Notes under the pieces: model-generated
The model's database searches: none
Seen by the model: only the letters and a program-made list of their open reading frames with translations
What the model was told of the DNA's origin: nothing
Program-made: the position numbers and the translations under genes
Assembly: GCA_000004695.1 (NCBI GenBank)
Contig: CM000152.2
Span: forward strand, 2,240,001 to 2,304,000
DNA length: 64,000 nucleotides
Source: Dictyostelium discoideum
Taxonomy: Eukaryota
Direction: 5' to 3'
In this document: one piece after another, positions 40,534-59,214 of the stretch
Layout of the letters: each line of letters begins with the position of its first letter
Position numbering within the stretch: the first letter of the stretch is position 1

Positions 40534-43500
40534 TTACAACTGCTCGTCATTACCGTTTGGGGTGTTGAAAGATGAATTATTAGGTGATTCGAAATCATTA
40601 TTAGAATATTCAGAAGGTGAATTTGAGTTTGAATTATTTGAATTTTGGCGAGAATCGCTGATCATTGTTGATAATTTGGTACTGTTTCTATTTTTTGAAC
40701 CTCCGCTATTTGTTGGACTATTATCTGAACTTGTATTAATATTTCTAGCACGTTGTTCAAAACAATACAAAATACTAAATCCAGGAACGATTTCAGTGAT
40801 TATTAAACCAATGAAACTGAATATCATTGAATTTACATTTCCTGCTACTAAAATCAATACAAATACACAATGTAATAAAAATCCAATCGAACATGCAACA
40901 GTGAGTGTAAAAATTTTTCTTTGATGATTTGATTTTGAGCCCACTTTAATATTGGTTGAACGCATAACAATGAATAAACGGCCACCCAAGTAAATGAATG
41001 CTGCACCCATAATTAATGAAATTAATGCTTGAATCACCGCGTAAACAATACTAACTACACGTTGTGGTGTTGAACTTTCCACTGGAATTATAATACGCGA
41101 ACCACAATCATTACTTGGATCGGTATTGGTATATTGGAAAACTAATACAATGGCAATGAATAATAGGTAGAGGAATGCATTGATTACAAATACAATTGTA
41201 AATAATCTCTTTGATAAATTCTCAGCAGATTTATTCTTTTTCAATACCAAGAATACAATGACATACCAAAGTACTAAAAGAATATTAAATGCTGTAAAGT
41301 AAATAAATGTTGGTAATACCACTAGAATGTAATCGGCGATTGGACTATCAGATAAATTACCACTTGGCATAATAAAGAAATAAATGGCTCTAATTGTGAT
41401 AAATAGTGTTACGACACCAATTAAAAGATGGGTTAGTTGGAAATTTCTTTTTTCTGAAACAAACTGAGTTCTAACAATAAGACATAATTCAAATAAACCC
41501 CAAATTGAGACTACTGAAAAGAGAGCACCCAATGTATACATTAATGCTCTTGATGTTGAGTCGAATGCTTGTTTACTTTCATTTTCCCATTCATCCATTC
41601 GATTAATTGGGAAATAAATTGGATTACCACCTTCAATGGTAACAATTGAACATAACATTAAAACTTCATCTTTACCTGCAGTTACACTATCCTTTGAAAT
41701 TTGAGTGAATATTTTATTTGATTGAATTGGAGTTGGTGTTGTTGATTCACCATCGATTTGAACTGCAAAATCTAAAATTGGATATTTTGTGCTAGATAGA
41801 GATATTTTCAAACAAATGGTTGCTTCATTTATACCATCTTGTGATTTAATCATAATACCATCTCCTAATAATGTACCAATGATTGCATCATTAGAGTTTT
41901 TAACACCATATTTATCAGCTTTCTTATAGGATACGAAATTTGATGCTAATGATTCTTTTTGTGCTGATGTATAGATTTCTCTTGAAATTTGTGAAATTGA
42001 TAAAGATTGACAACTTTGAGAGATTGAATCATTTGAAAATTCAATTTTACCATAATCGAATGAAAATGATGAATTTACACCTGCGCATGGTTTAGTTTGA
42101 CCTAATAATGGTGTTGATGCAGTGAAACATTGTGAGCCACCTTTACCTGAACAACTACATGTAATTGAGTTCAAATTTGATTGTAATCTTTCCATACGAC
42201 AATATGCTTCTGAACGGAATAAATCTGCAACTTGAGTTTTTGCTGCTTTTGTAACACTCTTGTAGAATAGTTGATAATTGAATACACTATCGATATCATT
42301 TGGAATGAATGATTTCGCAGTATTCCAAACAATTGGTTTATAAACACCTGGTAACCATGTAGCTGCTTTCCATTGGAATTTATTTGTCCATTTATTGAAT
42401 GAGTCCATACAACCTTCACATAAATCTTGATCCATTTCATTGAATTGGTAGTTGAATGGTAAATTATTAACTGTTATAGTGGATTCTAAAATTTTACAAC
42501 CCATTTGTGATGTACATGAACTTTGATTTCTTGCCGGTATCCACCATACACCACCATCATCTTCACAACTAACTTTACTCAAGTAGTCCAATCCTAATGG
42601 ATAACAACCATTTGGTGAATCTTGTTGGGCATATGGTTCACAACTTATGCCACTAAATTTACCATGTGGGAATAAACATTTACCATATCCATCAGGATAA
42701 TTATAATTTCTTGTAGTGGCTTGATTGAAATAAAATTCATCAGAACAAATACCTGCTGTTAAACATTCTTGTTCAGTTTGACACTCAATTGGTTTTAATG
42801 AGCATAAACTTTGTTGAGCATCTGGACCAATGCATTCACCTTCAAGTTTTGTTGAACAATCTATCCATGTATAACCTGAACCAGCAGTAATACATTGTTG
42901 TTCATCTGTTGCAGATTTTAATATACAAACTTTTGCTTCGGTTGACCATTCAGTTGTACCTACAGGATTATCTAATGCTGCACAATTTGTGCTATTCATT
43001 CCGGTTTGTAAAATTGCACAATAATCATCTTGATTATTTGCTAAACTTGAAGAGCATTCATAACCACATGGTACTGAACATTTACCTTTAGAATTACAAT
43101 TACTTTCGCTTGTTGCTGTTAAATCATATTCACCATTTGGTAAAAGACAAATTTGATTTTGAGTTTGACATGATGTTTGATCTGTAAATTCAGTAGCTAC
43201 ATGACATTGAGTATCTTCATTTGTACAAACACCACAAAAATCTTTTAAAACACAAGCATCTTCACATGACTCTTCAATACCATTTTCAGTATATGTATTA
43301 TCACTGCATGACAAGTATGGACAAATACCCCAAGAAGTACAATTATCAAAATGTGATACTAATCTAAAATCCCAATATAAAAACATACTATCCAAACAAG
43401 TATCATGATGAGAAAGGCATGAACCATCCAAACATCCATTTGTTGAATAACATTGTTCTTTGCTGTATGATACTCTTGACCCCCATGTATATGTAGAACG

Positions 43501-56400: not shown

Positions 56401-59214
56401 ATACATTCTTGATGTTGAACTGCATAACAATCATCTACTTGGAATCCTGGTGACCAAATAAATGTTGAACGATCTTTAATATAATTATGACCAATACAAT
56501 CCTCTCTTATATGGTTATTGAAAACTTTAGTTACAACATCATCATTTACTGTTGTTGAACCTTCTAACAATGAGAATAATGTACCAGGTGATAAGTGTAA
56601 TAGTACACATTTTACATATTCAAAATCGATTGTATCAAAATCTGGTATACAAGTTCTTGAGTATAAATTACATTCACCATTTCCATATCCATTACAATCT
56701 GTATCATTTGAACAAAATGGTGATACTAATTTACTCTTGCAATCTCTTAAAACTGTAATTGATGTTAATTCTAATTTTTTAGGTTCAATTGATGGCACAG
56801 CACAATCATCAATACCAGTTAACGAACTACCATAATCTGATAATACTGATGAGGTACATTCTTGACTTGAACATTGTTCACTTACTAAACTTTTATTCAC
56901 CGATATGAATTGTGTAACATTTTTTAAAACAATTGATGGATTACAACATTGATAATATCTAGCCAATTCTGAACAACATGGGTCAGTTTTATATTCTGGA
57001 TCAGTGACGAAATGTGAACAATATTTTGTTGATATATTCTTTGCAACAGTTTCCATATGTAATAATGATAATGCTTTATTACTACAACCTATCCATGCAT
57101 CACTAATAGTCAATGAATCTAAACTATATCTATAATTATTTAATTCATCAATATCCGAAACATTAAATAGTGTTGTCTCTGTTTTTTCAATAAGTCCCAA
57201 AACTTTTTCAAATTCTGTATTATTACATTCTAAATTTTTTTCTTTAAAATTAATAGTTAAATCAATTGGCTAAAGTAATAATAATAATAATAATAAAAAA
57301 TAAATGTTAATAATTTTTTAAAAAATAAATGTTAATAATTTTTTAAAAAATAAAAATAAAAATTTAATATTATTATTTACATTATTATTTTCATCAAAAA
57401 TAGTTCCAAGGAATTGTAAAGATGATTCTAAAATTGTTGAATAATTTTCAATAAAATCACCACCAACTGAAAGAATAAATGCAACTTGAAATGATTTTGG
57501 TTTAAAAGTATTTAATGGTGGCTGTAAAATATTTAAATAGTTAAATGAAGTTGAATCAATGAAACGAGCAGATACTGGCCATAATGGATTTATATCGTAT
57601 TGTGGATAAATTGCGGTGAATGTAGTGCTAGTTGTAAAAGCTGCTGAATCATAATCAATAGTTGGCAAACGTAAACGTACACTATTAACCAATGCTAAAG
57701 TACCAGGTTGTGTTGATAATGATCCCAATGAATATCTATACCTATTACCTTGATTTGTAATTGAAAATGAATAATCTGTTTCATAAACTGTATATACACT
57801 TAAATAAATAATTAATGGTGTTGTACTATCAACTGGTTCCAAATATAATACCATATTATTTTCATCTAAAAAAAAAATAAAAAATAAAAAATAAAAAAAC
57901 AATTAATAAATTAATAAATTAATAAATTAATAAAATTATTATTATTTAAATACGTTACAATCTTGTTCTAATTTCCAAGTTGTATAACTGGCATTTGGAA
58001 ATATATATTCGTTTGAAATAAATATTGAAGTACTTTGAAAAATTGAAGGGAAATTAAAATAATAGAAACCAGCATTTTCAACTTGAAATGAATAATGTTG
58101 ATATTGATTATCTGTTAAGAAACCATAGACAACTTGACCAATAGTTACACATATATGGTCAGATGATACTGGTTGACAATTTGAAGTGTCGACAGGTTCA
58201 CTTGGTACATCATTTGAACGAATGATCATTTTAAAAGTATAATTGTTACTAAGTGGTTGAATTCTTAAAAAGTAAGTGTCACGACTCCAAGAATCTGTGA
58301 ATGTAAAATGTTCAGTTCTATTCCAATTATCTGATGGACATATATTGAATAACATATTTCTTTCAGGTGAAAAACCAGATGAATAACGTGAATAGCTTGA
58401 TGATGGTGTTTTACCATTAATATAAACTTGACCATATCCAGAGATTGGTAAAACTTTTAAAAATAAACCTTTACAACCAAATGAATCGGCTTTCATTCTA
58501 AAAAATAGATCCTCTGATGTAGTATAGATTTTTTCTGTATCCGATTCAATAGTTGTCCATTCGCCATTACAAATATTCTCAGTGACATTACATGCATTTG
58601 TACAACTTGGATCACGGATTTTCGGACATTCGTTCATATCTGTATAATCACATGTACAATCTATATTCTTATCACTTGGAATATCTGTACAATTATAGTT
58701 TGGACATCCCAATGAATCATATAAATAAATATCTTGATCAAATTCAACATCAATCAATGCATATGATAAATCGGTTCCCAATAAGTTAACATCTTTTTTT
58801 ATAATAGTTGACGATTTAACTTCAATACCTATTTACAATTATTTTAATTAAAAAAAAAAAAAAAAAAAAAAAAAAAAAAAAAAAAAAAAAAAAAAATTGG
58901 TATTTTTAGAATTTTTGATTTTCACGTTTTACAAAAAAAAAAAATAGTGCGAAAAAAAAAAACAGTGCGAAAAAAAAACAGTTCGAATTGTTTTTTTTTT
59001 TTTTTTTTCAGATTCCGTGTGGTAAAATAATTATAATTGTTTATTTTTTGATCTTCGTAAAAATAAAAAAAAATAAAAATAAAACAAAAAAGATAAAAAT
59101 AAAAAAAATAATAATAATGAAAAAAGAAATTAATTTACCTCTGATTTTATTTATAAAAAAAAGATGGAACGAAAATAAGAAAATGTAAAATATTACAATA
59201 TTTTTAACATTCAT
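53478..59214 (-). CDS. Giant 7TM receptor-like protein, paralogue C, same architecture: about 59139-59214; about 57966-58828; about 57381-57869; 53478-about 57268.
   Basis: Exon1 MNVKNIVIFYIFLFSFHLFFINKIR(G) has a GTAAAT donor. Exon2 GIEVKSSTIIKKDVNLLGTDLSYALIDVEFDQDIYLYDSLGCPNYNCTDIP...TWKLEQD has a GTAACG donor. Exon3 (acceptor ttttttag) ..ENNMVLYLEPVDSTTPLIIY...IFDENNN has a GTAAAT donor. Exon4 is the 1240-aa ORF MGLIEKTETTLFNVSD...; its real exon start lies upstream at the ..ctttag acceptor at about 57268. The 7TM region is about 95% identical to A and B. Confidence 0.7.

Follow-up and report, generated by a model that had tools for sequence, protein, structure and literature searches.

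Three tandem Dictyostelium discoideum genes predicted to encode long-ectodomain, seven-helix proteins of the THH1/TOM1/TOM3 family

Three large paralogous genes, here named A, B and C, lie head to tail in a 64,000-nucleotide stretch of Dictyostelium discoideum DNA (assembly GCA_000004695.1, contig CM000152.2, positions 2,240,001 to 2,304,000). This whole stretch is referred to as the window, and all positions are counted from its first nucleotide. The reading that we favour, with moderate confidence, is that A, B and C are tandemly duplicated, intact genes of the expressed type, and that their products are surface receptors or adhesion-type sensors, acting through ectodomain binding and a bundle resembling that of G-protein-coupled receptors (GPCRs). 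Each product is built in the same order: a signal peptide, about 450 amino acids of beta-sandwich modules, a Cys-rich region of about 700 amino acids with some 60 conserved Cys, a juxtamembrane beta-sandwich, a seven-transmembrane (7TM) bundle and a Ser/Asn-rich tail. Judged by its sequence, the 7TM core is a member of the THH1/TOM1/TOM3 family.

The array and its protein products

The array occupies positions 40534-59214 on the minus strand and has a period of about 6.47 kb (18.7 kb in total). DNA self-comparison resolved three copies, at offsets of 6472-6475 and 12943 bp, which are 81-84% identical across 3.7-5.6 kb. In the list of open reading frames (ORFs) the same interval appears, on the minus strand, as three ORFs, all about 1,240 codons long and with two to three shorter ones ahead of each. 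We built the gene models with a D. firmibasis homologue (P0001, 1735 amino acids) as guide, and every junction was read in the sequence. Gene A runs on the minus strand from 59214 to 53478 (5737 bp, 1740 amino acids), with exons at 59214-59139, 58828-57959, 57865-57381 and 57269-53478 (76, 870, 485 and 3792 nt). Gene B, on the same strand, extends from 52826 to 46922 (5905 bp, 1775 amino acids; exons 52826-52766, 52514-51600, 51486-50996 and 50782-46922, of 61, 915, 491 and 3861 nt), and gene C from 46201 to 40534 (5668 bp, 1739 amino acids; exons 46201-46141, 45921-45037, 44937-44435 and 44304-40534, of 61, 885, 503 and 3771 nt). After splicing, none of the three models contains an internal stop. 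The product of gene A is 81% identical to the D. firmibasis guide, which is itself a single product.

All nine introns are of the GT..AG type, have a G+C content of 3-14% and sit at homologous sites. In gene A they lie on the minus strand at 59138-58829 (phase 1), 57958-57866 (phase 1, donor GTAACG) and 57380-57270 (phase 0, with a short ATT run). Intron 3 of gene B (50995-50783, minus strand) consists mostly of (ATT)n, and that of gene C (44434-44305, minus strand) also contains this repeat, which reads (AAT)n on the plus strand.

A preliminary description of this DNA, made from the letters and their ORFs, had proposed a same-strand tandem triplication of genes of about 5.7 kb, separated by about 0.7 kb and sharing one four-exon structure with the same intron positions and phases. 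The models agree with it throughout: the genes measure 5668-5905 bp, the spacers 651 and 720 bp, and the intron phases are 1/1/0 in all three. The individual exons had been recognised correctly as well. Exon 1 is a micro-exon of 61-76 nt encoding a segment with signal-like hydropathy, exons 2-3 together encode the beta-rich N-terminal domain of about 450 amino acids, and a single exon 4 of 3771-3861 nt (expected: about 3.7 kb) encodes both the Cys-rich module and the 7TM region. The (AAT)n intron, originally seen in at least two copies, extends to intron 3 of all three, the run in gene A being short.

Hydropathy profiles show in each protein the signal-like segment at the N-terminus and, between about amino acids 1400 and 1665, seven further hydrophobic stretches. 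The signal peptide looks cleavable and is predicted to be encoded by its own micro-exon. The N-terminal beta-sandwich ectodomain corresponds to exons 2-3 on the minus strand (57381-58828 in A, amino acids 26-477; 50996-52514 in B; 44435-45921 in C). Each protein has 79 Cys, 59-61 of them in amino acids 500-1330, and 15-19 N-x-S/T sites in amino acids 1-1380, in agreement with an ectodomain that lies in a lumen or outside the cell. We infer a topology with the N-terminus outside or luminal and the C-terminus in the cytoplasm.

The AlphaFold2 model of amino acids 1165-1680 of gene A, computed with a 27-sequence alignment, shows exactly seven long helices after a beta-sandwich (predicted local distance difference test score 76.6, predicted template modelling score 0.71). 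The count of seven transmembrane helices given in the preliminary description is thus confirmed by hydropathy and by structure prediction. The juxtamembrane sandwich comprises about 180 amino acids and directly precedes the first transmembrane helix (TM1). Folds were compared with Foldseek against the PDB, the juxtamembrane sandwich together with the 7TM bundle, and the predicted seven-helix bundle superposed on GPCRs, indicating a GPCR-type helix arrangement. For the N-terminal region, the orthologous segment of the D. firmibasis homologue served as proxy in structure prediction; at least one module is predicted to have the fold of the collagen-binding/PPC domain of bacterial collagenase. The PPC family (PF04151) was also the commonest weak Pfam match among the relatives (3 of 27, best E 0.0077, below the Pfam threshold). 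The PDB holds no sequence relative for the whole protein.

A Pfam/HMMER check, as proposed in the preliminary description, returned one significant domain per product, PF06454 (THH1/TOM1/TOM3). With 41.6-52 bits (E 1e-10 to 1e-14), the matches exceed the curated cut-off of 25, and they cover positions 3-258 of the 273 in the profile. On the minus strand, the domain lies at 53703-54512 in gene A, at 47231-48085 in gene B (E 8.9e-14, 52 bits) and at 40756-41556 in gene C (E 3e-12, 47 bits). It was also found, at E <= 0.01, in 21 of the 27 aligned relatives. The scan of the full 1740-residue product, which lists matches to E = 10 while the HMMER filters drop most of those weaker than about E = 0.1, gave only PF06454 and a spurious PsaH match (E 0.004, below cut-off), which we regard as chance. 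GPS/GAIN, Frizzled, ANF and cAR models were not among its matches, as had been noted before, and no GPS-type cleavage motif (H-L-T/S) occurs in the 40 residues preceding TM1; immediately before this helix the sequence is NPIYFPINRMDEWE. Earlier, the family had been described as not placeable in a known GPCR class. None of the GPCR class models matches, but the core falls in a known Pfam family.

Surface receptor or endomembrane protein

A role as surface receptor or adhesion sensor appears plausible for A, B and C and ranks first among the readings, with an endomembrane scaffold as its main rival. A membrane protein with a large binding domain on the outer or luminal side, and with binding partners that differ between the paralogues, would fit the features seen here: signal peptide and glycosylation sites, an ectodomain rich in disulphides, folds of binding modules, a bundle resembling that of GPCRs and a tail rich in Ser and Asn. 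In the mechanism that we propose, the ectodomain would bind an extracellular macromolecule or surface, with the N-terminal modules, which differ between the paralogues, setting the specificity. By way of the conserved Cys-rich stalk and the juxtamembrane domain, the binding event would then reach the GPCR-like bundle with its cytoplasmic tail.

Several observations, including the plant data discussed below, weigh against a surface receptor. None of the class-specific GPCR models 7tm_1, 7tm_2, 7tm_3, Frizzled and Dicty_CAR matched in the full-product Pfam scan, and hydropathy is the sole basis for both signal-peptide cleavage and topology. The only characterised PF06454 members, plant TOM1 and TOM3, are intracellular, and the literature that we found is confined to plants. 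In the collection searched, we found no publication naming these genes and none on PF06454 members with a long ectodomain; the gene identifiers and the terms PF06454/DUF1084 retrieved plant papers only.

The strongest competing explanation, which we hold to be distinctly less probable, is that A, B and C are 7TM scaffolds of endomembranes (lysosome, phagosome or vacuole) like plant TOM1, and not surface signalling receptors. The glycosylated Cys-rich domain would then face the lumen, and the cytoplasmic face would recruit small GTPases, for instance ARL8, or other factors. The 7TM core belongs, by sequence, with TOM1, and lysosomal membrane proteins typically have a luminal domain with heavy N-glycosylation and many disulphides. 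What makes this role a live rival is that plant TOM1 is a tonoplast protein (PMC10576174), and TOM1 moreover co-purifies with the small GTPase ARL8 (PMC3234234). In a split-ubiquitin test, TOM1 alone among the candidates failed to bind the G-alpha subunit GPA1 (PMC2530877). However, products of the TOM1-like gene At3g59090 did bind GPA1 in the split-ubiquitin test (PMC2530877). Furthermore, plant TOM1 has no ectodomain, so that its localisation may not carry over to the amoebal proteins, and the PPC/collagen-binding-like modules, together with the paralogue-specific divergence of the N-terminal region, better fit the recognition of an external ligand.

A bolder version of the surface-receptor reading is also conceivable, yet we regard it as unlikely. 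A, B and C could keep the original form of the TOM1-type family and be true surface receptors, with plant TOM1 as a stripped-down descendant. The PPC-like modules, which differ between the paralogues, would then recognise external macromolecules, for example on prey cell walls, in matrix or on other amoebae, and the GPCR-fold bundle would signal. If true, this would reveal an unrecognised and widely distributed class of protist receptors, and the function of TOM1 would become approachable in a genetically tractable amoeba.

There is little chance that A, B and C are members of the "tiny macrocysts" (tmcB) family, which regulates cyclic AMP (cAMP) signalling in sexual development; in that case an outline of their function would already exist. 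The tmc proteins are large, multi-pass and encoded by a multigene family, which would suit the array. Published work cites tmcB as regulating macrocysts and the cAMP pathway (PMC12750705, PMC8516963), and the tmcB and tmcB-like accessions in supplementary file 4 of PMC8516963 are Q5FBC3, Q5FBC4, Q54HV3, Q54IC4, Q54IC6, Q54IC7, Q54SE9 and Q550Y1. This list includes neither the accessions of the cluster (Q54WL0, Q54WK9, Q54WK8 and Q54WK7) nor a further D. discoideum paralogue, Q54CF9. All sources label the proteins of the window only as "hypothetical protein" or "THH1/TOM1/TOM3 domain-containing protein". A more specific identification of the cluster as tmcA/B/C was supported neither by exact-sequence look-up nor by the accession list of PMC8516963.

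Distribution and evolution of the family

The size of the family was taken from a full HMMER scan, because an indexed homologue search gave very few matches (4, 5 and 1) and missed proteins present in the query alignment. The full scan covered 1.84 billion cluster representatives, with the ectodomain of the D. firmibasis homologue (amino acids 25-1219) as query. It retrieved 199 representatives at E <= 1e-3, of which 35 reached E <= 1e-30. Most of these 35 are 1600-1800 amino acids long and therefore have the same architecture. Within Dictyostelium, 10 distinct named loci belong to D. purpureum, and further named members to D. citrinum, D. dimigraforme and D. firmibasis; in D. discoideum itself a fourth clear paralogue lies elsewhere in the genome (DDB_G0292988, Q54CF9), which brings the total to at least four. 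Other named members are from Cavenderia fasciculata, Heterostelium album and Polysphondylium violaceum. Beyond the dictyostelids, the family includes a member in the variosean amoebozoan Planoprotostelium fungivorum, and Fabomonas tropica has a partial match only. Because members occur outside the dictyostelids, the family is not dictyostelid-specific, and the term "lineage-specific", used in the preliminary description, is not supported.

The more distant representatives of equal length have the N-terminal motif in common, and several are Ala-rich (9-12% versus 3-4% in dictyostelid-like members). Another distant set (P0072, P0042, P0088 and P0065; 1590-1830 amino acids) has a dictyostelid-like composition, with the N-terminal motif retained as well as the pattern of cysteines. 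PF06454 matches one of the four, and P0042 and P0088 lack any Pfam match. These proteins point to a second subfamily built in the same way.

The same A-B-C array is present in D. firmibasis, with one-to-one orthology of the N-terminal domains at 77, 62 and 84-88%. The comparison dates the predicted array to before the split from D. firmibasis. Between orthologues, the ratio of non-synonymous to synonymous divergence (dN/dS) is 0.14-0.26, in exon 2 and exon 4 alike, which indicates purifying selection and therefore functional genes. In D. firmibasis this array lies at positions 16299-25511 of the locus L001, and D. citrinum has it too (protein P0154, 2711 amino acids); in these two species gene callers had merged adjacent copies into products of 3464 and 2711 amino acids.

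The two ends of the genes have had different histories. In exon 4, synonymous divergence (dS) between the D. discoideum paralogues (0.23-0.36) is lower than between orthologues (0.46-0.55), whereas in exon 2 the paralogue values (0.64-0.98) are at least as large as those of orthologues (0.54-0.77). Likewise, in several 100-codon segments of exon 4, identity within the species (0.93-1.00) exceeds identity between species (0.80-0.92). Exon 4 also carries long exact tracts on the minus strand. A and C, which are not adjacent, are identical over 347 bp (56249-55903 and 43278-42932) and over 427 bp (55213-54787 and 42236-41810), and B and C over 191 bp (47887-47697 and 41412-41222), on a background nucleotide identity between copies of 70-77% (77% overall for A and C). 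These tracts look like recent gene conversion, confined to exon 4. Since paralogue dS falls below orthologue dS and the A/C tracts are exact, the comparison establishes, at the level of sequence, that gene conversion homogenises exon 4 with its Cys-rich, juxtamembrane and 7TM parts, and that exons 2-3 diverge independently. Amino-acid identity among the copies is 45-55% in the N-terminal region, 73-79% in the Cys-rich region, 80-92% in the juxtamembrane domain and 87-90% in the 7TM bundle.

Annotation, surroundings and related systems

The reference annotation already contains the genes, under an automatic domain label. By exact-sequence look-up, the product of gene B is residue for residue that of XP_641708.1 (DDB_G0279575, Q54WK9) and the product of gene C that of XP_641707.1 (DDB_G0279573, Q54WL0), both of which carry just the two database names given above. 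Gene A has no exact match; the AX4 annotation holds two models in its place. DDB_G0279579 (320 amino acids) corresponds to amino acids 1-315 of gene A plus five residues, CNVFK, read through from intron 2, and DDB_G0279577 (1421 amino acids) runs from an internal Met at amino acid 320 to the end. AX4 thus splits gene A wrongly, probably because the intron 2 donor, GTAACG, is non-consensus. The two models are one gene, since the same intron is present in B and C, which are annotated as single genes, since the D. firmibasis and D. citrinum orthologues are single products, and since exon 2 is under purifying selection. In newer automated annotations (ACTFIT_010607, ACTFIY_005831 and ACTFIZ_010775) the error is the opposite one, all three genes being merged into a single product of 5182-5288 amino acids.

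That the long models are artefacts, with the N-terminal exons forming separate small genes and exon 4 alone encoding a 7TM protein, would agree with the two AX4 entries and with the unusual donor, but is highly improbable, because the shorter entry ends in intron read-through and the longer one begins at an internal Met, B and C share intron 2 in the same phase, dozens of homologues from other species join both parts in one product of 1600-1800 amino acids, and purifying selection on exon 2 is in step with that on exon 4.

The sequences between the copies are the A-B spacer at 52827-53477 (651 bp) and the B-C spacer at 46202-46921 (720 bp). Apart from AT-richness they are unlike each other, and the repeat alignments stop near the coding regions. 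Each spacer should hold the promoter of the downstream gene and the 3' end of the upstream one. Short, relatively G+C-rich islands occur at 46440-46500, 53060-53100 and 59440-59500, in spacers otherwise made of A and T only. From each of them it is about 240-290 bp downstream to the start codon; an example is GGGACGGTCTTGCAAGTATTAGGGTCTCTCGTACG, upstream of gene C. They are possible promoter elements; the copies are not alike in island sequence. Intron 1 is the longest intron in every copy (219-310 bp; 58829-59138 in A, 52515-52765 in B, 45922-46140 in C). It contains T or A homopolymers that reach a length of about 50, as well as short motifs with G or C that recur, such as CGCACT(G/A)TTTT, found twice in A, and GTTGACAAAA, found twice in B. 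These repeats could be regulatory elements or could be due to chance.

The window as a whole is strongly AT-rich (G+C fraction about 0.2) and is 99.76% identical to record CM142509.1 of the D. discoideum assembly GCA_054883475.1. It contains no tRNAs. Almost all of its large ORFs are on the minus strand, among them the neighbours of the array at 5750-7159, 10584-12428, 21454-22941, 25879-29163, 32081-33871, 33972-36485, 36676-37554 and 38573-40186. Their Pfam content is ordinary (Nuf2, Pumilio/PUF, an AMP-binding enzyme, a weak WD40 match, RasGEF, RhoGAP and GRAM), and the 537-residue ORF directly downstream of gene C has no Pfam match.

These findings are relevant beyond the correction of the annotation, in which DDB_G0279579 and DDB_G0279577 become one gene. 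Given 10 distinct named paralogues for D. purpureum and four or more for D. discoideum, the family may amount to a large group of so far unstudied surface proteins. It is reportedly not included in the Dictyostelium GPCR inventory published by Prabhu and Eichinger in 2006. The cluster is also a clean example of domain-restricted concerted evolution, with the stalk and 7TM region kept alike among the copies and the N-terminal modules growing apart. TOM1 and TOM3 are major tobamovirus susceptibility factors in crops, and receptor-like relatives in Dictyostelium offer a tractable system for asking what the bundle does.

Among known systems, plant TOM1, TOM3 and THH1 (PF06454, formerly DUF1084) are the nearest, with a seven-helix core that is homologous by sequence. 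Computational work has flagged plant members, too, as GPCR-like (PMC2530877). TOM1 and TOM3 are tonoplast-associated and known as host factors in tobamovirus replication, a plant role that includes binding of the viral replicase, TOM2A and ARL8. Judging from the 273-position profile and from descriptions as a "seven-pass transmembrane protein" (PMC3234234), they are essentially the bundle alone, which in A, B and C is preceded by a signal peptide and about 1,370 amino acids of ectodomain. The tmcB family is likewise a Dictyostelium multigene family, and its published accession list does not contain A, B and C. With class A GPCRs the fold superposes, at a sequence identity of about 10% and without a match to a class-specific Pfam model. 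Adhesion GPCRs resemble A, B and C in having a signal peptide, a long, modular, Cys-rich ectodomain and a folded domain before TM1, followed by the 7TM bundle. They differ in that A, B and C have neither a GAIN/GPS Pfam match nor the H-L-T/S motif, and take their 7TM core from another sequence family. Finally, the PPC domain of the collagenases ColG and ColH belongs to a secreted bacterial protease, whereas its predicted counterpart here is part of a eukaryotic membrane protein.

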